The notes beneath the pieces were generated by a model that saw nothing but the letters and a program-made list of their open reading frames with translations, searched no databases and was not told the origin of the DNA. Shown one piece after another: positions 2,615-58,940 of a DNA stretch of 64,000 bases. Origin of the DNA: Ignavibacteriota bacterium (GTDB lineage Bacteria; Bacteroidota; Ignavibacteria; Palsa-1295); contig CAVTNP010000001.1 in the NCBI GenBank assembly GCA_963736195.1, forward strand, positions 690,133 through 754,132, written 5' to 3'. The position numbers were made by a program, and so were the translations under genes. Position 1 is the stretch's first letter; every line of letters starts with the position of its first letter.

Positions 2615-3475
2615 ATGGCACTCGATCATTTCCGCATAGAACCAGGCAGCGCCTTTTCGCTCGACTCCATCGATCCAGCGAACACACCGGGATTGAAAAC
2701 CAAAAAAAGCGCGGAAACAAAGCTCGTGAGCGACATCGAAGAACTCTCGAAGCTTCAATCTATGCTGTTCGCCCAAGATAATTATTCATTGCTTGTCATT
2801 TTTCAGGCAATGGATACTGCTGGGAAGGATAGCGCGATCAAGCATGTACTGACCGGCGTCAATCCGCAGGGTGTCGAGGTAAGTAACTTTCGCGTTCCGA
2901 GCGCCGAGGAGCTAAACCACGATTTTATGTGGCGTGCCATGAAAAGGCTTCCCGAGCGCGGGCGCATCGGCATTTTTAATCGTTCCTATTACGAAGAAGT
3001 GCTGACGGTTCGGGTTCACCCAGAGCTTTTATCCGGTGAAAAGCTTCCGAAGTCCGCACAAAAGAAAAATATTTGGAAAGAGCGTTATGAAGACATCAAT
3101 GCCATCGAGAAATATCTCACACGCAATGGTATTCGTATCGTTAAGTTCCATCTTTGTATCTCCAAAGAGGAACAGCGCAGGCGCTTACTCGCGCGCATCG
3201 AGGAGCAGGATAAGAACTACAAGATCAGCACGGCCGACGTGTATGAACGCACGTTCTGGAAGGATTATATGTCCGCCTACGAGGAGATGATCCGCCATAC
3301 CAGCACCGCGCACGCCCCGTGGTATGTTATCCCGTCCGATCACAAATGGTACACGCGCATCGCCGTTGCAGATGTGCTGGTTAGTACGCTACAATCGCTT
3401 CAACTCGAATTCCCGAAAATGACGAAAGATAAACTGCGCGAAATGGAGAAAGCGAAAAGACTGCTAAGTGTCTGA
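2615..3475 (+). CDS. ppk2: Polyphosphate kinase 2 (PPK2) family polyphosphate:nucleotide phosphotransferase
   Basis: Walker A-like motif AMDTAGKDS and conserved FNRSYYEEVL block typical of PPK2. Length 286 aa. Confidence 0.8.
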   Translation: MALDHFRIEPGSAFSLDSIDPANTPGLKTKKSAETKLVSDIEELSKLQSMLFAQDNYSLLVIFQAMDTAGKDSAIKHVLTGVNPQGVEVSNFRVPSAEELNHDFMWRAMKRLPERGRIGIFNRSYYEEVLTVRVHPELLSGEKLPKSAQKKNIWKERYEDINAIEKYLTRNGIRIVKFHLCISKEEQRRRLLARIEEQDKNYKISTADVYERTFWKDYMSAYEEMIRHTSTAHAPWYVIPSDHKWYTRIAVADVLVSTLQSLQLEFPKMTKDKLREMEKAKRLLSV

Positions 3476-3501
3476 ACTCGGATTTATGGGATTTTAGGGA
3501 T
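3472..3501. repeat. Left terminal inverted repeat (CTGAACTCGGATTTATGGGATTTTAGGGAT) of the cassette carrying the GxxExxY gene
   Basis: It is the reverse complement of 4029-4058 with 29/30 identity. It contains the TGA stop of ppk2. Confidence 0.7.
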
Positions 3502-3549
3502 CGACAGGAAAATATTAATAAATTTCAACCAAATAACCACTCAATTGCT

Positions 3550-3954
3550 ATGCTCGAAGATAGTGAAATTACTGGTAAGATCATCGGATGCGCAATGAAA
3601 GTACACTCGTCGCTCGGCAATGGCTTTCAAGAAGTTATTTACCAACGAGCCCTTGCGATGGAGTTGGAATTAGCTAACATGCCATTCTCACGTGAGCATG
3701 AAATGCCGATCTATTATCACGGAGCACTTATTGGAACTCGGCGCGTCGATTTCTTGGTCGATGGAAGAATCTCAGTTGAACTAAAAGCTATTACTGTGTT
3801 AGAAAATGTCCACCTTGCTCAGGCGATAAACTACCTTGAAGCGTATAATCTTCGAATCGGTTTATTAATTAATTTCGGTGCGGTCAGTATTGAAGTCCGA
3901 AGGCTTCAAAATAAAAAGCATAAGCCCTCCATTGAACCGAGAGATAGATCTTAA
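3550..3954 (+). CDS. GxxExxY-family protein (PDDEXK_3 nuclease-fold superfamily)
   Basis: 134 aa. The signature G-F-Q-E-V-I-Y (GxxExxY) lies near the N-terminus, followed by RVDFLVD and ELKA blocks typical of this family. The gene is flanked by 30-bp inverted repeats. Confidence 0.7.
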   Translation: MLEDSEITGKIIGCAMKVHSSLGNGFQEVIYQRALAMELELANMPFSREHEMPIYYHGALIGTRRVDFLVDGRISVELKAITVLENVHLAQAINYLEAYNLRIGLLINFGAVSIEVRRLQNKKHKPSIEPRDRS

Positions 3955-4028
3955 CGAAGCGAGCCTCAAGGAAACATAGTGAATTTGCGGGTTCTATGTG
4001 ATTTATTACGAAGAAATTCTTCCTGTTA

Positions 4029-4058
4029 ATCCCTAAAATCCCATAAATCCAAGTTCAG
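4029..4058. repeat. Right terminal inverted repeat (ATCCCTAAAATCCCATAAATCCAAGTTCAG) of the cassette carrying the GxxExxY gene
   Basis: It is the reverse complement of 3472-3501. It contains the stop codon of queG on the opposite strand. Confidence 0.7.
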
Positions 4059-4972
4059 ACAGCCGCATTCCTTATCAATCCCGCCAACTTCGTCCGCTTC
4101 ACAGGGGATTTCTGAAAGCGCCGGGAGAATTCCTCCGCATCCATTTGCGCGATCTTATCTCGTGTGAGGTTCAGATTCCCCTCTCGCGGAGCAAACTCCT
4201 GAATAGCCGATGGTTCTGCAAAGCGGTTCCAGGGACAAACGTCCTGGCAAATATCGCAGCCGTAAAGCCAACTATCCATTTTAGAGGCAAACTCTTCGGG
4301 AATGTTGTGCTCTGGTTTTAGTTCGATGGTAAGATAGGAGATGCAGCGCGTGGCGTCGATCTCGTAAGGTTTCAGTGCATCGGTTGGGCAGGCCTCGAGG
4401 CAGCGGGTGCAGGTGCCGCACAGATCTTCTGCGGGTGAGTCAGCTTCCAACTCGATATTCAGAATGATCTCTGCAAGGAACACCCACGAGCCTGCTTCCC
4501 GTGTGATGATATTGGTGTGCTTTCCTTGCCAACCGATCCCAGCGCGTTCTGCAATAGGTTTTTCGAGGAGCGGGCCGGTGTCGGTGTAATAGCGTCCTTC
4601 AGACTCCGGTACAAGTTGCTTTATTTCTGCAAGCAGCTTTTGGAGAATCGGTGGAATGATCTCGTGGTAATCCGTACCCCACGCATAACGGGAGATCTTT
4701 AGCTCTCCTGCATCAGGGAATTTGTCTGGATGATAATAGTTAAGCGCCAGCGAGAGAATGCTTTTCGCTCCTGGCAGAATATTCCTGACATCGCGCCGCT
4801 TTTCGTGGTTGTGCTCCATCCACTTCATCATCCCATGCGCACCGCCTGCGACCCATGCTTCAAAGTAATCCGCAGCTTCGTTAAATGGCTCAGCGGAAGT
4901 CACACCGGCTTTGTTAAAGCCGATCTCGATCGCTTTTGCTTTGATGAGATTGGTTAACTCGCCGGGAGTCAT
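4055..4972 (-). CDS. queG: Epoxyqueuosine reductase QueG (4Fe-4S)
   Basis: CGTCTRCLEACP and CDICQDVCPWN ferredoxin-type cysteine motifs. Length and order match QueG. Confidence 0.85.
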   Translation of the reverse strand: MTPGELTNLIKAKAIEIGFNKAGVTSAEPFNEAADYFEAWVAGGAHGMMKWMEHNHEKRRDVRNILPGAKSILSLALNYYHPDKFPDAGELKISRYAWGTDYHEIIPPILQKLLAEIKQLVPESEGRYYTDTGPLLEKPIAERAGIGWQGKHTNIITREAGSWVFLAEIILNIELEADSPAEDLCGTCTRCLEACPTDALKPYEIDATRCISYLTIELKPEHNIPEEFASKMDSWLYGCDICQDVCPWNRFAEPSAIQEFAPREGNLNLTRDKIAQMDAEEFSRRFQKSPVKRTKLAGLIRNAAV

Positions 4973-9712: not shown

Positions 9713-9766
9713 ATCATCCTAAAATCGTCCGCGTAATCCGCCTTAATCCGCGTAATCCCGGTTCTG
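9713..9766. repeat. Copy of the dispersed repeat family (CATCCTAAAATCGTCCGCGTAATCC...CCGCGTAATCCCGGTTCTG) spanning the nuoC-nuoB junction
   Basis: About 85% identical to 44857-44909. It contains an internal direct repeat TCCGCGTAATCC x2. Part of it encodes the nuoB C-terminus. Confidence 0.6.
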
Positions 9767-10258
9767 TGTCCTTACGATATCCTGCAATTTCATCAAACCT
9801 TCGAGCAGAGCTTCGGGGCGCGGCGGACAGCCAGGAATATATACATCAACCGGAATGATCCGATCGACGCCTTTCAGCACATGGTAACCATATTCCCAGT
9901 ACGGGCCCCCGCAGTTCGAGCAGTTTCCCATGGAGATCACGTACTTCGGGTCGGCCATTTGCTCGTAAAGCATTTTGATGCGCGTCGCCATCTTCAGCGT
10001 AACGGTTCCTGAGATAATGATCACATCCGATTGGCGCGGACTTGGGCGCGGAATAACTCCAAAACGCATCATGTCATAATGCGATGCCGCAGTGGCCATC
10101 ATTTCGATAGCACAGCAGGCAAGGCCAAAGCTCATCTGCCACAAACTCGAAAGGCGAGACCAATCGAAGAGCGTGTCGAGGTTTGTAACGATAATATTGG
10201 ATTCACCCGTTTTATCATTTGGAAGTACGGGGAGTTCGAGTTTATCTAAATATCCCAT
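9743..10258 (-). CDS. nuoB: NADH-quinone oxidoreductase subunit B (20 kDa, Fe-S)
   Basis: CCAIEMM...[11 protein letters not shown]...[10 protein letters not shown] cysteine motifs diagnostic of NuoB. Confidence 0.95.
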
Positions 10259-10261
10259 GTA

Positions 10262-10390
10262 AAATTACGAATTACGAATTTCAAATTACGAATTATAAAA
10301 AATACGCAACCTCAAGGCGAATCCCGCACGATACTGTTTGCTGTAGATTCGTAATTCGCAATTCGAAATTTGTAATTCGTAATTACAACA
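10262..10390. repeat. AT-rich imperfect inverted repeat built from ATTACGA heptamers (arms about 35 bp, 50-bp spacer) in the nuoB-nuoA gap
   Basis: AATTACGAATTACGAATTTCAAATTACGAATTAT ... ATTCGTAATTCGCAATTCGAAATTTGTAATTCGTAATTA. The right arm is translated as the C-terminal tail of nuoA. Confidence 0.6.
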
Positions 10391-41399: not shown

Positions 41400-42044
41400 A
41401 TGGAAGGCCGCATCACCTCGATCGTCCGTCAAAAGAACGACAAGGCTCGCGCTTCGATCTTTTTGGATGAAGAATTTGCGTTCGGGGTGTGCGATCAGAC
41501 GGTCGAGCAATTCCGCCTTCGCAAAGGCGATTACATCGATCGTGAGTTATTCGAAAAGATCACGGAGTTCGATCTATTCATCGAAGCGAAGCGCGTTGCG
41601 CTGGCATATCTAAACTATCGCGCCCGCAGCGAGAAAGAGATTCGTGAGCGATTGCAGAAGGAAGACATTCCAGAGCCAATTATTCTTCGAACCTTCGAGT
41701 TCCTGCGAGAATACAAACTGATCGATGATGAGGCGTGGTCAAAATCCTTCGTAAATGATAAACTGGTAAGGAAATCTGTGTCATCGAAGCAGTTGGCGTA
41801 TGGCCTGGCGCAAAAAGGGGTGTCGAAGGAAGTGATCGAAGAAACGATCTCGAATTTGAATGCAAATGAGAGTGATGAGTCCCGTGCCATACGCGCTGCC
41901 GAAAAGCGCTGGCCACGAATCCTGAAATCCGAGAGCGACCCCCGAAAGCAAAAACAAAAGTTGTACACGTTTTTGGCCGGAAGAGGGTTTGATTATGACG
42001 TGATCAACCAAGTGATCGCAAAAATTATGAATGATGAATTATGA
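41400..42044 (+). CDS. recX: RecA regulator RecX
   Basis: Three-repeat helical architecture with typical blocks (ALAYLNYRARSEKEIRERL, AWSKSFVNDKL, LAYGLAQKGV). Confidence 0.8.
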   Translation: MEGRITSIVRQKNDKARASIFLDEEFAFGVCDQTVEQFRLRKGDYIDRELFEKITEFDLFIEAKRVALAYLNYRARSEKEIRERLQKEDIPEPIILRTFEFLREYKLIDDEAWSKSFVNDKLVRKSVSSKQLAYGLAQKGVSKEVIEETISNLNANESDESRAIRAAEKRWPRILKSESDPRKQKQKLYTFLAGRGFDYDVINQVIAKIMNDEL

Positions 42045-42096
42045 AAGATGAAATATCTTCCTCTGATTCATCATTCATAATTCATAATTCATAATT
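42022..42096. repeat. AT-rich imperfect inverted repeat made of ATTCATA/TATGAAT heptamers, spanning the recX stop and the recX-ybbR gap
   Basis: AAATTATGAATGATGAATTATGAAAGATGAA ... TTCATCATTCATAATTCATAATTCATAATTT. The architecture matches the nuoB/nuoA element. Confidence 0.55.
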
Positions 42097-42101
42097 TCCT
42101 C

Positions 42102-43055
42102 ATGACCCTCGCTCGCGGCATCCTGATTTTCCTCGGCGCACTGATCTTTTCTGTGCTGCTGTGGGCGTATGTGCGGCTTTCAGCAGCGTATGAGGCGGAT
42201 GTCGATCTGCCGGTCAAGCTTACTGCGCCGAAAGGATATGCGCTCGCTTCCGGCGTTCCCGAACGATTGCACACACGCGTGCGCGGCGCGGGCTGGCAGA
42301 TACTTCTGATGGGTTTTACCAAGAATGCGAATTTCCAATTCGATCTTTCCGAACGTGCGTTGCCGCCCGAGGAACTTGTAACGCTGCACTCGGACGAGAT
42401 CGCGAATTCAGCCGTACTCCCAAGTGAACTGCGCGTGCTGAAAGTGGAACCGGATTCTCTTGAACTACAATTTGCCAGGGCCATCGAAAAACGAATCAGC
42501 ATACAACCGCGGCTTGACGTGCGCCCGGCCCGGGGCTATGTTATCGTTGGTGACCCGGTGGTGACACCGCGCACGGTATCCGTAGTTGGTGCTTCCGATG
42601 TGGTTGATTCCTTGAACGGGATTTCGACTCAGTCCTTCCGGGTGACCGATGCGAAGGAAGATGTGGATCGAGTGCTGTTGTTATCCGATTCGCTCGATAA
42701 TTTTATTACCATACCAAATGCGCCGAAAGTTACCGTTCACGTCGCGGTGCAAGCGATCGGCGAACAACGAATTTCCGGAGTTCCAGTAGTTATCGATGCG
42801 CTGCCGCCTCAATTTGAGCTGCTCCTCATTCCAGGAACGATCGCTGTTACGATTCGAGGAGGCGCGGAGGAGCTGGCGAAGCTTCAGCCTTCTGTGATCC
42901 ATGCGCGAGTGTTGTATAACCCCACGATGCTGGATACTGCAACGTCCGTTACGCCACAGATAGAAGTTCCAAGGGGATTGACATATCTCTCTTCCGATCC
43001 TCCCAGTGTAAAGTTCATTCTCCGGCGAAGGGGGGCGGATCATGGGACTCCGTGA
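42102..43055 (+). CDS. YbbR-like domain protein (CdaR-type)
   Basis: N-terminal TM helix followed by repeated YbbR-like beta modules. Confidence 0.55.
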   Translation: MTLARGILIFLGALIFSVLLWAYVRLSAAYEADVDLPVKLTAPKGYALASGVPERLHTRVRGAGWQILLMGFTKNANFQFDLSERALPPEELVTLHSDEIANSAVLPSELRVLKVEPDSLELQFARAIEKRISIQPRLDVRPARGYVIVGDPVVTPRTVSVVGASDVVDSLNGISTQSFRVTDAKEDVDRVLLLSDSLDNFITIPNAPKVTVHVAVQAIGEQRISGVPVVIDALPPQFELLLIPGTIAVTIRGGAEELAKLQPSVIHARVLYNPTMLDTATSVTPQIEVPRGLTYLSSDPPSVKFILRRRGADHGTP

Positions 43056-44802
43056 TGCTTCGTTCGTCGTAGTTGATGTCGAAACAACCGGCCTGAACGC
43101 TGCCCAGCATCGCATTACGGAGATCGCTCTGGTGCGGGTGCAACAGGGAGCGATCACGGAATCCTATACCACGCTTATCAACCCCGAGCAGTTCATTCCG
43201 CCGTTCATCACGCAGCACACGGGAATTACGAACGCGATGGTGTACGACAAACCGCGCTTTCGCGAGGTTCTTCCAGAGATAGAGAAGTTCATCAAAAAAT
43301 CCGATCTGCCGGTGCTGGTTGGGCATAACGTGAAGTTCGATCATGGGTTTCTGATCGAGTCTTTCAAACGCGCGGGACAAGAATTCCAACATGCCCAAGG
43401 CCCGCTATGCACCTGCCGGCTTGCGCGCAGATTACTACCACAGCTTGGAAGTAAATCACTCAAAAGCGTACAGGATTATTTAGGAATTAAGAACCCGCGC
43501 CAGCATCGCGCGCTTGGGGATGCGCAGGCTACGGCAAAGATCCTGCTGCATTTCTTATCGATGGCAGAGGGATTGGAGATCGAGACGATCGAAGATCTGA
43601 TCCGCCTGCAATTTGCCAAACCCAATTACGCTCGCCGTAAAACTAAGCGCGAGGTTTCGCTTCGTGAAAAAGTACGAATGTTCCCAGACCGTCCTGGAGT
43701 CTATACGATGACGAGCCGAGGTGGTGAAGTGCTTTATGTTGGCAAGGCGAAGAGCCTTCACGAGCGCGTGGCTTCTTATTTTACCCAATCGCATACGGAG
43801 GGCACGAAGCTAACCCGCATGATGCGGGCCGTGCAGGATATTACCTACGAAGAAACAGGCAGCGAGCTTTCTGCATTGCTATTGGAGAGCCGAAAGATCA
43901 AGGAACTGAACCCACGCTTTAACTCGCTCGATCGCAGGTATAAGCCGCAGAGTTTTATCCGGCTGGACGTGCAGAACGATTTTCCGGAACTATCGTTCAG
44001 CCGCGAACCGGCGCCGGATGGGGCCGAATATTTCGGGCCGTTCCGCTCGCGCGAGGCGGCGGAATCGTTGATGGAAATCCTGAACCATGCTTTCAAACTT
44101 CGCGAATGCGGCGACAAATTCAAGATCGGCGCTGATGTAAGGCCGTGTCTGTATTTTGAGATCGACCGGTGCGGAGCGCCGTGCGCGCTCTTGCAATCCA
44201 AGCAATCCTATCGTGATGAAGTGAGGCGCTTGCAGGAATTCCTCGCCGCAGGTGATGACGGAGTTCTTGCTCACGTCGAACAGCTCATGCGCGATGCCTC
44301 CGACAAACTCGATTTCGAAGAAGCTCAGTTTTACAAAGTCCGGCTCTTCGAACTGCGCCGTGTACTTGGCACGGGCGATCGGCCATCGGCAAGCCTCAGC
44401 GCAAACGATTTTGTGCTTTTAAACCCCCTCAATGCCTCGGAGTGTGAGGTCTATTTTGTGAGATTCGGCCAACTCATGAAGCAAATGGTTCTCGGCGTGG
44501 GACACCTGCCCATCGCCGAACAATGGTTCGCGCGTCAGCTTCGCATGTATTACGGTGCAACATCCTCGTTGCCTCCCTCGGCTGGAAAACCAGAGATCGA
44601 TGAGATGCGCATTCTTTCGAGGTGGGTCGAGACAAGCAAGAAAAAGGGGAGCAGAATAATCTATATCGAGCAGGATTGGGAAGACTCAGTAACGAAAGTG
44701 GTAGCAGAATTGAGAACGATGCTTGGGGAGTCACAAAAGGAACTATCGCAAGCCCAATCACGCCAACGCAAACTTTTGTTGAAACCGATGAAAACTGTCT
44801 GA
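43042..44802 (+). CDS. DnaQ-like 3'-5' exonuclease fused to a GIY-YIG (UvrC N-terminal-like) nuclease domain
   Basis: DEDDh motifs (FVVVDVETTGL, HNVKFDHGFL, H..LGDA) followed by GIY-YIG (GVYTMTSRGGEVLYVGKAKSLHERVASYF). A Cys cluster follows. Confidence 0.8.
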   Translation: MGLRDASFVVVDVETTGLNAAQHRITEIALVRVQQGAITESYTTLINPEQFIPPFITQHTGITNAMVYDKPRFREVLPEIEKFIKKSDLPVLVGHNVKFDHGFLIESFKRAGQEFQHAQGPLCTCRLARRLLPQLGSKSLKSVQDYLGIKNPRQHRALGDAQATAKILLHFLSMAEGLEIETIEDLIRLQFAKPNYARRKTKREVSLREKVRMFPDRPGVYTMTSRGGEVLYVGKAKSLHERVASYFTQSHTEGTKLTRMMRAVQDITYEETGSELSALLLESRKIKELNPRFNSLDRRYKPQSFIRLDVQNDFPELSFSREPAPDGAEYFGPFRSREAAESLMEILNHAFKLRECGDKFKIGADVRPCLYFEIDRCGAPCALLQSKQSYRDEVRRLQEFLAAGDDGVLAHVEQLMRDASDKLDFEEAQFYKVRLFELRRVLGTGDRPSASLSANDFVLLNPLNASECEVYFVRFGQLMKQMVLGVGHLPIAEQWFARQLRMYYGATSSLPPSAGKPEIDEMRILSRWVETSKKKGSRIIYIEQDWEDSVTKVVAELRTMLGESQKELSQAQSRQRKLLLKPMKTV

Positions 44803-44856
44803 ACCTTGATTTGGGGCGATTTCAGAGAATAAAAAGATAAGGCTTCATTTTCAATC

Positions 44857-44909
44857 CATCCCTAAAATCGTCCGCGAAATCCCCTTCCATCCGCGAAATC
44901 CAGGTTCTT
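44857..44909. repeat. Copy of the dispersed repeat family (CATCCCTAAAATCGTCCGCGAAATCCCCTTCCATCCGCGAAATCCAGGTTCT) upstream of the second ECF sigma gene
   Basis: About 85% identical to 9714-9766. It contains an internal direct repeat TCCGCGAAATCC x2. Confidence 0.6.
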
Positions 44910-55459: not shown

Positions 55460-55657
55460 GTGTTATGAACGTACCACTTATGACTGGCGGTTCTCCGTCT
55501 ACGAAAATACGGAATAAATCGAGGGGGGCGGGTAATTCGGTCACTTGTCATTCCCGCGGATACAAGAATCCAGGCCCGGAGCTACAGTAACCATTGGATT
55601 CCCGGTTCATGGCCGATCATGCTCCTTTCGCGGGACATGCCACTCAAGTATCCCATT

Positions 55658-55690
55658 CATCCCAGCAATACCCATAAATCCAGGTTCAGA
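55658..55690. repeat. Copy of the dispersed repeat family (CATCCCAGCAATACCCATAAATCCAGGTTCAGA)
   Basis: Shares the CCCATAAATCCAGGTTCAG core with 3472-3501 and 4029-4058. Confidence 0.5.
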
Positions 55691-55833
55691 ATTTCAAAAC
55701 CAGCATTGTCCGCGTCTACCCATGCACCTGAATGGGGGCATTCATACACCTCATTGCTCAAACGTCCACGCCAAGCATATCTCGATGAAGACGTTAATTG
55801 GAACCGAAGCGAGATTCTACCGTTTCTTCTATT

Positions 55834-56378: not shown

Positions 56379-58505
56379 TCACCGCATCAGCACCACCGGC
56401 AGCGTTTGCACGGTGGATGAGCGATCATCCACCTGCCCATTCATCCGAACGAGGCATTCATACACCCCATCGGGCAATCCGGTAGGATTGCCCCATATAA
56501 AGTTATGCTCTCCCGCACCCAACTCACCCGAAAACAGCCGCGCAACCTCCACGCCAAGCATATTCACAATGGATACCTCCGCATATCCAGCAGCTTGAGA
56601 TGTGAAGGTGATCTGGGTAGATTGAGAGAAGGGATTTGGGTAGATTTGAATTGACGGTTCGGTTACTGTTGAGGTTTGCGCTACGGAACTAATACCGAAA
56701 TCGGAAAGTGGAATGTCCCAAACACTGTATCCATTAGTGCCTGCAAAAAGATTCGTTCCGTTGGCAACAAGGCATGTGATGCCGTAAAAGGGAATCAGCC
56801 CAGTGTTCTTTGACTCCCATGTCGTTCCATTATCAATAGAGAAATAAACGCCACTCTTATCATCACTCACGAATAAATTCGAACCACTGGCGGTAAAAGA
56901 TGATATTCCATTACCAGGAAGGCCCGCAAATGCTTCTTTCCAACTATTGCCGCTATCAGTGGAACGATAAATGCTATCATTATAACTTACAGCAAAGAGA
57001 CTCGTCCCATTGGCAAAAAGATAATAGAAATAGCTCATTGGTGTTGCCAAACTCGTCCAGGTAGCACCAAGGTCTGTGGAGCGCAAAACCACCCCGGTTG
57101 GAAACTCATCAGGACCCTCGGCAGCAGCAAACAGAGTCGTTCCGATGGCTGCAAACAAAGACGCTCCCCCATACCCTCCGACACCCAAATTTTTTTCATT
57201 TTCGACTGTCTGAGCAATCCAGTTCGAACCGCTGTCCGAGGAATAATAGAAAACGCTATCGTTCGCAGCAAAAAGATTCGTTCCGCTTACGGTGAGTATT
57301 GTTGTAGGCTCGGTATCGATGAGAATCCAGCTTTTGCCGTTGTCCCTTGATCTAAATATTCCGCCTGGAGGGATGCCATAGGGACCATTCGCAACTGCAA
57401 AAAGAGTTGTTCCCATAACGGCCAGATCATCGACATAATATCCAGAGAGTCCAGCGGTTGACCAGCTTGTTCCATTGTCGGTTGATAGAAAGAGGCCATT
57501 GGAGGCGTTCTCGGCAGCAAAAAGATTCGTGCCCACGGTTGCGAGCACGGCAATATCAGCGTCGGTGATTCCATCCGTAGCAGCAGTCCAAGTCTCCCCG
57601 CTATCGCTTGAACGGAACACCTGATCCTCAAAAGATCCGGCAAAAAGAGTCGATCCAACTGCCTCAAGAGGGCCAAAGCCGATCACATTACTTATTCCAT
57701 CGCTGGATGAATCCCAGCTTGCCCCTCTATTTCTAGAATGCCAGAGCCTCCAAGAATCTGACACATAAATGTTCGAGTCGTCAATAATTAGAGAGGATAT
57801 ATCTGCATTCGAGAACCCATTTGTATCCGGCAACCAACTTGCCCCGCTATCTGTGGAACTCCAGACCCCCGCGCCGTGGGTACCCCCAAACAGCGTCGTC
57901 CCCATAACTGCGAGTGGAGCGAACAGGACTTGTGAGACACCTGCACTCGTCCAAGTTATTCCATCGTCTATTGATTCAACAAACCCGCCTTCGTACATCC
58001 CAACGTACACGCTTGCAAAAAGGGATGAACCGATGGAGGCAAACGAAGCGGCATTGATCCCAATAGTCGTCCAATTTTTCCCGTTGTCTGTAGAACGAAA
58101 AGTACCGCCATCTGTCGCTGCAAAGAGCGTGGTTCCATTGGAGAAGAGTGTGGAAACTAAGTACGAAGTTAAACCTGAGCCATGCCAAGTATTGCCGTTA
58201 TCAGATGTGAGATATACGCCGCTATCGGTACCTGCAAAAATATTCGTGCCCACAATCGCAAAGGTTTGAACGGCACCATTCGTGAGACCTGTGCTTGAAG
58301 GAGTCCAGCTTGCGCCATTATCTGTAGAACGAAAAATTCCATCTCCCCAGGTTCCGGCAAACAAGCTTCCGTTTTGAAATGTAAACGCTTGAACCGTCCC
58401 TCCCCATGGTCCATTCGTTTGCACCCACTGTGCGTGCAGCATACACGGCGGCATCACCGCGAGCGTGGCGAAGAGAGTGAGTGCGAGAAGCCGTTTCGGG
58501 AACAT
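56379..58505 (-). CDS. Secreted beta-propeller protein with about 14 BNR/Asp-box-like (SxDxGxTW) repeats and T9SS C-terminal sorting domain
   Basis: Signal peptide MFPKRLLALTLFATLAVMPPCMLHAQ. Repeated STDNGASWT / SDNGNTWH / STDSGASW ... motifs. C-terminal Por tail ...IQIYPNPFSQSTQITF...GVYECLV... Confidence 0.75.
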   Translation of the reverse strand: MFPKRLLALTLFATLAVMPPCMLHAQWVQTNGPWGGTVQAFTFQNGSLFAGTWGDGIFRSTDNGASWTPSSTGLTNGAVQTFAIVGTNIFAGTDSGVYLTSDNGNTWHGSGLTSYLVSTLFSNGTTLFAATDGGTFRSTDNGKNWTTIGINAASFASIGSSLFASVYVGMYEGGFVESIDDGITWTSAGVSQVLFAPLAVMGTTLFGGTHGAGVWSSTDSGASWLPDTNGFSNADISSLIIDDSNIYVSDSWRLWHSRNRGASWDSSSDGISNVIGFGPLEAVGSTLFAGSFEDQVFRSSDSGETWTAATDGITDADIAVLATVGTNLFAAENASNGLFLSTDNGTSWSTAGLSGYYVDDLAVMGTTLFAVANGPYGIPPGGIFRSRDNGKSWILIDTEPTTILTVSGTNLFAANDSVFYYSSDSGSNWIAQTVENEKNLGVGGYGGASLFAAIGTTLFAAAEGPDEFPTGVVLRSTDLGATWTSLATPMSYFYYLFANGTSLFAVSYNDSIYRSTDSGNSWKEAFAGLPGNGISSFTASGSNLFVSDDKSGVYFSIDNGTTWESKNTGLIPFYGITCLVANGTNLFAGTNGYSVWDIPLSDFGISSVAQTSTVTEPSIQIYPNPFSQSTQITFTSQAAGYAEVSIVNMLGVEVARLFSGELGAGEHNFIWGNPTGLPDGVYECLVRMNGQVDDRSSTVQTLPVVLMR

Positions 58506-58600
58506 AGTGTGCCTATAGAAAGCCGCGCGGGAAGTTAAAAGTGCCCCTGCGAAAGGTCAATTCGGAGTACCTAACCTCCGGTGGAATCATGGGGATTCAT

Positions 58601-58738
58601 GGAAGCAGCGCTTCCATGCACACAACAACAGTGTTTGTGTGGAGGGAAGCGCTGCTTCCCTCATTCCCCAATCCCAACCAGCGTTACTTCCCTCATTCCC
58701 CAATCCCAACCAGCGTTACTTCCCTCAATTCCACTTCC
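58601..58738. repeat. Structured repeat region upstream of htrA: a 15-bp inverted repeat pair (GGAAGCAGCGCTTCC / GGAAGCGCTGCTTCC) followed by a 32-bp tandem repeat x2.5 (CCTCATTCCCCAATCCCAACCAGCGTTACTTC)
   Basis: Two perfect unit copies at 58659-58690 and 58691-58722 plus a partial copy. The track ORFs here (58541..58813, 58581..58838) are repeat-derived. Confidence 0.6.
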
Positions 58739-58940
58739 ATCCCCCATACCATCCGGTGTAGCTTCCCCTATCATGGTTGGATTTATCTTCATTCACCAAG
58801 TCTTCATTGGTGAAACAAGAAATTGCCCGTTACGTTAGAAAACTTCACCTTATATGGAGCGCGCCTTTACGCAGCCTTATGGCGTATCTGGGGGCTCCAG
58901 GTTAGCCACTCATTCACCAAATTTTTATCAGGAGTCAAAT

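Follow-up and report, generated by a model that had tools for sequence, protein, structure and literature searches.

A GxxExxY nuclease gene bounded by inverted repeats as a candidate compact selfish element in an Ignavibacteriota genome

Background

In the REPIN/RAYT pair, dispersed and genome-specific hairpins of ~100 nt accompany a low-copy gene that sits between inverted copies of them, is greatly outnumbered by them and encodes an HUH Y1 (IS200/IS605-like) transposase. Free-standing homing endonuclease genes, among them the PD-(D/E)XK types I-Ssp6803I and I-Bth0305I, are small nuclease genes present or absent at one site, whose history is discordant with that of the host and whose divergence boundary falls within tens of nucleotides. 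Here we analysed a 64,000-nt stretch of an Ignavibacteriota bacterium genome (assembly GCA_963736195.1, contig CAVTNP010000001.1, positions 690,133 to 754,132; hereafter the window), in which positions 3469-4061 hold a 593-bp cassette: one gene, for a GxxExxY protein, enclosed by a 42-bp inverted repeat. By analogy, this element would work most like one of these two systems, and it belongs to neither.

The features just named recur in the cassette and its relatives. What separates it from REPIN/RAYT is the protein, here a predicted Cas4/RecB-like PD-(D/E)XK nuclease, together with termini conserved across phyla and arms made of boxes at a 9-nt period. Unlike homing endonuclease genes, the cassette lies outside any intron or intein, has long inverted-repeat arms and has gene-less hairpin relatives; a single sequence-specific target is unlikely because the cassette family occupies thousands of unrelated sites. 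The protein family, PF13366 or GxxExxY, is listed as 'function unknown' (PMC3424549), and the literature we searched on it held that designation plus an incidental mention next to cas4, with no description of the cassette or hairpin family. We are inclined to read the cassette as a complete copy of a compact selfish element, with the GxxExxY nuclease as its single defining gene and the proposed driver of its mobility.

Results

Insertion of the cassette between ppk2 and queG

The cassette is wedged between two convergent genes, ppk2 (2615..3475, plus strand, 286 aa) and queG (4055..4972, minus strand, 305 aa), whose products were confirmed as PPK2 and QueG by profile match. Its arms, 3469-3510 and 4020-4061, are 42 nt each, complementary at 39 of 42 positions (93%) and 509 nt apart. 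Direct reading of 3472-3501 against the reverse complement of 4029-4058 gave 29 identities in 30, as the original prediction from the window had claimed. The left arm opens with the terminal TGTCTGAAC (3469-3477), followed by GATT boxes at 3481, 3490 and 3499 (9-nt period), and the right arm closes with GTTCAGACA (4053-4061). A 22-nt core of the arms, GGATTTATGGGATTTTAGGGAT, has two matches in the window, both in the cassette arms, against 0.00 expected from 100 shuffles. Both neighbouring genes end in Val-TGA, and this GTC-TGA is part of the outermost TGTCTGAAC of each arm, so that the left terminus donates the ppk2 stop (3473..3475, plus strand) and the right terminus the queG stop (4055..4057, minus strand); the claim that both stops fall inside the repeat ends, here within TGTCTGAAC and GTTCAGACA, thus holds. 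Inside the arms lie a conserved 5' spacer (3511..3549, plus strand) that separates the left arm from the start codon, a single open reading frame (ORF) for the 134-aa GxxExxY protein (3550..3954, plus strand), and a variable 3' spacer (3955..4019, plus strand) that is not conserved in the related copy described below. Profile matches (PF13366, E 2.6e-37; TIGR04256, E 6.2e-39) agree with the predicted sole cargo.

Comparison loci were chosen through close PPK2 orthologues (88-90% identity). At two of them (L119 and L123) the ppk2 and queG stops lie 5-7 nt apart with neither repeat nor gene between them, and PPK2 and QueG are 288 and 307 aa long. At a third (L121) the same cassette is present with identical junctions, carrying a 126-aa GxxExxY protein 94% identical to that of the window, and the flanking proteins are 286 and 305 aa. 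The ends of the host proteins follow this division: PPK2 terminates in ...LLSQEK, ...LLLKEK or ...LLSKEG at empty sites and in ...LLSV when the site is occupied, and QueG in ...AALK at empty sites and in ...AAV or ...VAV when occupied. The occupied state is derived, because an ending of the form ...AKRLLxKE(G/K) directly before the stop is kept in nearly all PPK2 homologues down to ~60% identity; in the window, a single Val codon stands in place of the three codons that close the ancestral 288-aa form.

In all, ~29 nt of target were replaced, comprising the last three codons and the stop of each gene plus the spacer. A target-site duplication, the mark first thought worth seeking at this cassette, is absent, and the empty sites therefore cannot be precise excisions. 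On sequence comparison, the cassette at 3469-4061 is an insertion between ppk2 and queG that gave each gene a new Val-TGA end. The empty sites, the ancestral PPK2 C-termini and the cross-phylum termini described below bear out the original view of a mobile cassette that was inserted, is bounded by inverted repeats and belongs to a dispersed repeat family. An ...LLSV end in another homologue (P0021), considered as an independent insertion, was rejected: it is encoded GTG-TAG without a repeat and is a coincidence. At a fourth locus (L118, 3868-4010), the junction holds in the cassette's place a 143-nt insert of an unrelated repeat type (CATTCTGAGCGTAGC..GCGAAGCATC ... CCGCTCAGGATGAC), with PPK2 and QueG of 288 and 307 aa. 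The window neighbours of the cassette are sulP, ppk2, queG, genes for proteins with type IX secretion system tails, and nuo genes.

Arrival at the same site in two lineages

The host genes of L121 are nearer to those of the empty-site genomes than to those of the window: identity to L121 is 0.92 for L118, 0.88 for L123 and 0.89 for the window in PPK2, and 0.84, 0.86 and 0.79 in QueG. Between the window and L121, synonymous divergence (dS) is ~1.4 in the flanks (proportion of synonymous differences, pS, 0.63) and 0.57 in the cargo gene. Measured in windows, pS is 0.5-0.8 across the two flanking genes, to within 18-75 nt of the termini, and 0.32-0.47 inside the cargo; no co-transferred flanks were found past ~75 nt. 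Since synonymous divergence falls inside the cassette, the element came horizontally to the same site. The comparison thus places it at one site, with identical junctions, in two non-sister lineages. Either an insertion that is site-specific (homing-like) or recombination over a very short tract could account for this.

The cassette itself is unevenly conserved between the two copies. The left arm is identical at 42/42 positions, the right arm at 39/42 and the 5' spacer at 36/39; the 3' spacer is unalignable, with identity of 0.12-0.61 in 3920-4040 as against 0.83-0.95 in the arms and ORF. Judged from these substitutions, the cargo gene is under strong purifying selection (dN/dS, the ratio of nonsynonymous to synonymous divergence, 0.065), and the arms and 5' spacer are under constraint as well.

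Association of the gene with its arms

We examined GxxExxY genes in repeat-selected loci (0.8 Mb) and in a repeat-independent set of 80 loci fetched by protein patterns alone, where the bracketing inverted-repeat score was held against the 95th percentile of displaced-flank controls. In the repeat-selected loci, each of the 7 GxxExxY genes immediately follows a terminus and shares its strand, in unrelated contexts (between hsdS and hsdR, between cas4 and cas1, between pyrH and frr, and upstream of prfA). In the repeat-independent set, 56 of the 71 evaluable genes (79%) were bracketed above the control 95th percentile, with a median score of 33 vs 18, and the bracketing arms are of the same family, with the GTCTGAAC terminus and GATT boxes every 9 nt. 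Other copies of the gene are thus likewise flanked by inverted repeats, as had been suspected. The commonest architecture is left arm-gene-right arm (27/70), and hairpin-gene and hairpin-gene-hairpin variants occur too.

GxxExxY is the only cargo seen between such arms. The 90 ORFs neighbouring termini fall into 74 unrelated families, and among the 25 families listed for them no second cargo, transposase or integrase recurs. The cassette departs in this from insertion sequence (IS) elements of known class (DDE, DEDD, HUH, Ser, Tyr, Cas1), its sole ORF being PF13366. Divergent genes of the GxxExxY family, with 31-43% identity, occur in Gemmatirosa, Bacteroides, Bernardetia and Sphingomonas. They are also single and wedged among housekeeping genes, between arms of the same design with other boxes (GCAGAGGAC, CACAGAGGA, CGCGAAGG); the Gemmatirosa arms retain the ...GGTTCAGAC terminus. 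These sequence patterns show the gene and its arms to belong together as one unit across the whole protein family. From the sole cargo, the linkage in 56/71 genes and the subfamily-specific arms it follows that the gene is the hallmark and the gene-less hairpins the derivative or dependent form.

GxxExxY cassettes recur in defence operons (L104 4731-5172, L106, L218-L233). The L104 copy is frameshifted and lies between cas4 and cas1, adjoining a genuine cas4; other cassettes lie between hsdS and hsdR, between hsdS-higBA and hsdM, and between hsdS and Fic-hsdR. This recurrence could mean either permissive landing pads or a functional link.

Three further loci show unusual arrangements. In a metagenome-assembled genome (MAG) labelled 'archaeon' (label unverified; L009 ~1600-2330), a cassette interrupts a methyltransferase-like gene in its 3' end, and a C-terminal coding stretch (YGLTEEEI..VVE..) is found on both sides of it, diverged, as if a replacement gene end had been brought. 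In Prevotella nigrescens (L214) and Fusobacteria bacterium ZRK30 (L215), divergent genes are flanked by direct rather than inverted repeats of ~50-80 nt, suggesting tandem cassette arrays.

A hairpin family with the same termini

A scan of one genome per species with the query TCTGAACNNGGATTTATGGG matched at least 116 stretches of DNA, the chance expectation being ~17 by our own arithmetic (18 specified bases, 2 x 596 Gb). Among the matches listed are Chitinophagaceae and other Bacteroidota, Ignavibacteriota, Kapaibacteria, Armatimonadota, Chloroflexota, Poribacteria and Desulfobacterota, and one match is in a MAG labelled archaeal. The family logo reads T-GTCTGAAC-yr-(T/G)GATT-nnnn-(T/G)GATT..., with a 9-nt period and information of ~1.5-2 bits over the GTCTGAAC terminus and first GATT box and ~1.1-1.4 bits over the second box.

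A census of 1.25 Mb of fetched loci found 403 termini, forming 116 nearest left-right pairs with bimodal spans (60-200 or 450-720 nt): 81 are <200 nt and 29 are 400-800 nt, with almost none between. About 90% of the termini in the repeat-selected sample are without a gene. The short pairs fold to hairpins of -20 to -70 kcal/mol at gene 3' ends, each with a ~16-bp terminal stem, usually continuous with occasional mismatches at variable positions, followed by 5-bp GATT/AATC mini-helices separated by symmetric internal loops of 3-4 nt. Complementarity between arms at variable box positions exceeds that with shuffled partners (0.76/0.49, 0.78/0.51 and 0.63/0.38; z 6-7), and the spacers of the arms show no covariation (z ~0), a pattern indicating that the arms keep complementarity at the GATT boxes only. 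The donated stop is general to the family, the terminal TGA closing an ORF of at least 60 codons at 24/129 termini and the other two frames doing so at 4 and 11. Across 115 pairs, flank identity equalled the shuffled control for k = 2-9 and three offsets, giving no sign of a target-site duplication. No Rfam family, rRNA included, reached the gathering threshold in the window, and nine hairpin loci gave only sub-threshold generic miRNA-hairpin matches.

Hairpins have multiplied within particular genomes. In Gemmatirosa, a matching hairpin occurs at no fewer than 79 places, at least 40 on one replicon and at least 39 on a second, vs 3 GxxExxY places, and the Gemmatirosa-type hairpin was not found in other plasmid records. 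Chthonomonadaceae have their own hairpin subfamily. By these counts, gene-less hairpins with the same termini far outnumber the genes and form genome-specific subfamilies.

The window holds further members of the family. The repeat core had been predicted to recur elsewhere in it; the exact core does not, even allowing up to 3 mismatches, and what does recur are degenerate members: a gene-less hairpin at 44796-44908, whose left terminus TGTCTGAACC donates the stop of the upstream exonuclease gene and whose right end is degenerate, a solo right-type arm at ~55650-55692 (ATCCC...CCCATAAATCCAGGTTCAGAA), and an arm-like stretch at 9716-9770. L217 carries the orthologue of the exonuclease gene at window 43042-44802. 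A left-type terminus in mutated form, TTGTCGGAGCCTTGATTTAGGGCG, is found 22 codons inside that gene (~3180-3200), and the protein is truncated and ends ...ILSEP. Similar truncated ends, in ...EP or ...PT, are seen in the homologues P0244, P0255 and P0272, and P0246 terminates slightly before that point; from these shared ends, hairpin insertion removed the conserved C-terminal tail RKLLLKPMK.

The encoded protein and its expression

The GxxExxY protein passes the curated cut-offs of both PF13366 PDDEXK_3 (128.2 bits, cut-off 22) and TIGR04256 (133 bits, cut-off 35). The G25-F-Q-E28-V-I-Y31 motif, D67, E77-x-K79 and Q91-xxx-Y95 are invariant in 28 homologues. All 8000 scored candidates of the homologue search had E <1e-10, and the 120 homologues listed are 69-79% identical to the query, the query itself and the L121 orthologue excepted. 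No solved homologue was found by sequence. An AlphaFold2 model (predicted local distance difference test, pLDDT, 89.4; predicted template modelling score, pTM, 0.82) gave as its best Foldseek match the Cas4 protein SSO0001 (E 4.6e-4), then lambda exonuclease, AddAB/AdnAB, MGME1 and the Cas4-family ACE1, with a weak fold match to I-Bth0305I. The model points to a minimal Cas4/RecB/lambda-exonuclease-like PD-(D/E)XK nuclease with its catalytic residues intact. It shares with that clade the fold and the motif set E...D...ExK...QxxxY, and differs in being ~125 aa long and in lacking an Fe-S cluster domain and any helicase or Cas partner. PADLOC defence models gave no match to the protein, and PHROG gave one weak match of no assigned function.

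The N- or C-terminal tails of many annotated GxxExxY proteins (NPLITKITVQT, ENQMNHGSDD; P0224, P0228, P0230, P0137, P0140) are translated repeat arms. These tails could be artefacts of gene calling, or the result of genuine read-through into the arms.

The shortest, most compact elements (453-470 bp) lack the 5' spacer: their ATG falls within box three of the left arm, 26 nt in from the terminus, and their right arm overlaps the 3' end of the ORF. They therefore have no room for a promoter of their own. Sigma-70 promoter and intrinsic terminator signals inside the window's element are at background level, and a terminator-like T-run was not found. The upstream neighbour is co-oriented in 50/54 cases and the downstream neighbour in 49/58. 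The nuclease would thus presumably be expressed by read-through from the upstream host gene.

We also considered whether the arms form an RNA stem in the sense transcript. Among arm mismatches in 29 gene-bearing elements, counted on the sense strand, G.T stands at 5 vs 16 for A.C in the terminal 16 bp, and at 34 vs 56 over 36 nt. The RNA stem was rejected on this count, G.U not being enriched and the bias being the opposite one. If the single-stranded hairpin is the active form, the A.C bias is a weak hint that the bottom strand is the active one.

Other repeats near gene ends

A second hairpin family, TGTCATTCCCGCGAAAGCGGGAATCCAG...CTGGATTCC..CGCGGGAATGACA, was seen in several MAGs (L216 ~3265-3350, L217 ~3255-3350, L035, L041), with a degenerate copy at window ~55535-55615. 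Relatives carry the TGTCATTCCCGCGAAAGCGGGAATCCAG-type hairpin at the intergenic spot that holds a GTCTGAAC-type hairpin in the window: L216, the orthologue of the 44796-44908 locus, is without that hairpin and has the different family in its place. Several hairpin families therefore appear to use gene ends as common landing sites. Two intergenic palindromes of the window, at 10263-10384 (7-nt period AATTACG-AATTACG-AATTTCA-AATTACG, 56-nt loop) and 42022-42097 (7-nt period ATGAATG-ATGAATT-ATGAAAG, 14-nt loop), have tandem-box arms of other sequence and may be other hairpin-element families. On the minus strand at 56731-58340, 6-8 dispersed copies of 29-38-nt motifs are spaced ~114-489 nt apart in what looks like a repeat-domain protein gene; after it, 58590-58743 holds a 36-nt palindrome and three 32-nt tandem repeats.

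Discussion

In the mechanism that we infer for the selfish element, the nuclease would recognise its own termini or hairpin (the GTCTGAAC stem with periodic boxes), probably as DNA, and its cutting of DNA would promote copying of the element into gene-end sites. The joining step would be left to host repair or recombination, because the PD-(D/E)XK fold cannot perform strand transfer. The nuclease would also act in trans on gene-less hairpins, which would be a parallel to the RAYT/REPIN pair, or to a homing endonuclease on which miniature inverted-repeat transposable elements (MITEs) depend. A broader proposal is that GxxExxY elements are an unrecognised class of autonomous prokaryotic mobile element spanning at least 8 phyla, in which a minimal Cas4/RecB-like PD-(D/E)XK nuclease, without any known transposase or recombinase, acts on hairpin or cruciform termini (GTCTGAAC with periodic boxes), drives homing-like insertion at gene ends and mobilises in trans the still more numerous gene-less hairpins; we offer this tentatively, as possible and still doubtful.

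Several observations weigh against a selfish element driven by its nuclease. A ~125-aa PD-(D/E)XK nuclease cannot alone join DNA. Recent transposition should leave identical proteins at more than one locus; P0227 and P0192 each occur at one locus only, and turnover is slow because no identical copies at different loci were found. No conserved target sequence could be identified, the replaced gene ends bearing only a loose resemblance to the terminus. Recurrence in type I restriction-modification (R-M) operons could reflect a role beneficial to the host, and the cargo's lower dS could be partly constraint rather than age. The second Gemmatirosa replicon carries ~39 hairpins with no GxxExxY match at the threshold used. 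Finally, no gene remnants were found in mid-size hairpins, and an origin of the hairpins by deletion is therefore not obvious.

The last two observations, together with the gene-less ~90% of repeat-selected termini, speak for another reading, in which an unlinked transposase or recombinase moves the hairpin as a non-autonomous MITE and GxxExxY is a captured passenger; to our knowledge, moreover, no PD-(D/E)XK enzyme is known to act as a transposase on its own. MITEs such as Correia/NEMIS, ERIC and RU share with the cassette family terminal inverted repeats, small size, multiple copies, long hairpins and an intergenic position at gene ends. A captured passenger should vary, however, and here the cargo is always GxxExxY, 79% of independently sampled GxxExxY genes have arms, and subfamilies down to 31% identity keep the arm design while their box sequences co-vary. 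The ORF that fills the cassette interior is intact, with catalytic residues preserved under strong purifying selection. No target-site duplication was found, and the 25 families listed for 90 ORFs beside the termini include neither a parental IS with a known transposase nor a recurrent transposase or integrase. We therefore depart from the original prediction of a non-autonomous MITE-like element with a passenger gene, in view of the sole cargo, the 56/71 genes with arms and the divergent subfamilies with arms of their own, and consider it unlikely.

Somewhat less probable again, in our judgement, is that GxxExxY is an accessory nuclease of benefit to the host, for instance in defence, spread by ordinary transfer, with the arms as regulatory or RNA elements (a terminator, an mRNA stabiliser or an RNase III stem). 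Its recurrence inside type I R-M and cas operons agrees with this, as do the strong hairpins (-20 to -70 kcal/mol) at gene 3' ends and read-through expression, which would place both arms in one transcript. There is also a precedent for an ORF within an inverted-repeat stem: intervening sequences of 23S rRNA in Leptospira and Coxiella carry an S23p (four-helix-bundle) ORF (PMC4990558). Like the cassette, these are selfish elements of ~0.4-0.7 kb with one small ORF in an inverted-repeat stem within a host transcript; unlike them, the cassette lies between protein-coding genes, encodes another protein family and has no sense-strand G.U signature. The missing G.U excess speaks against an RNA function of the arms, as does the lack of an Rfam family, and a defence role finds no PADLOC match. 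The near-invariance of the terminus across phyla suggests recognition by a protein. Nor does host benefit explain the genome-specific amplification of gene-less hairpins or the arrival at a single site, where divergence changes sharply at the termini.

We hold it very improbable that the hairpins are integron-type attC sites and the GxxExxY genes cassettes placed at secondary sites by an integron integrase. The resemblance is real in outline: hairpins of 60-140 nt, imperfect palindromes ending ...AAC / GTT..., a single-gene cassette with no room for its own promoter, some hairpin-gene-hairpin arrangements, no target-site duplication, and a weak bias suggestive of the bottom strand. In detail, however, the termini GTCTGAAC and GTTCAGAC depart from the attC boxes R'' RYYYAAC and R' GTTRRRY, GTTCAGA misfitting the R' consensus on direct reading at position 4 (C) and position 7 (A). 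The ~16-bp stem is mostly continuous with symmetric loops, having no unpaired central spacer and no extrahelical bases. The commonest architecture puts the gene inside the palindrome rather than beside it, the cargo is monotonous, the elements are single and among housekeeping genes, and no integrase is among the 25 neighbour families listed. An ordinary resident gene, with the repeats as terminators of its convergent neighbours, can be dismissed, as the original prediction had held: the neighbours are convergent and a small palindrome spans the two stop codons of the L119 empty site, but orthologous sites empty of both gene and repeat refute it, the repeat belongs to a cross-phylum family, and a terminator-like T-run is missing.

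PF13366/TIGR04256 is a very large family with no function assigned in the sources, and status as the hallmark gene of a compact selfish element would give it a concrete and testable biology, supported by the conservation of the termini, by gene-less hairpins that depend on the gene, by polymorphism of the insertion and by its horizontal arrival at one and the same site. The element also explains many odd single-gene insertions in operons (between fabD and fabG, hsdS and hsdR, cas4 and cas1, and pyrH and frr), remodelled gene C-termini, and spurious arm-translated peptide tails in MAG annotations. If the nuclease drives mobility, it would be a new enzyme class in prokaryotic mobile DNA and the element would be categorically new, providing a second, independent gene-and-hairpin relationship of the RAYT/REPIN type.

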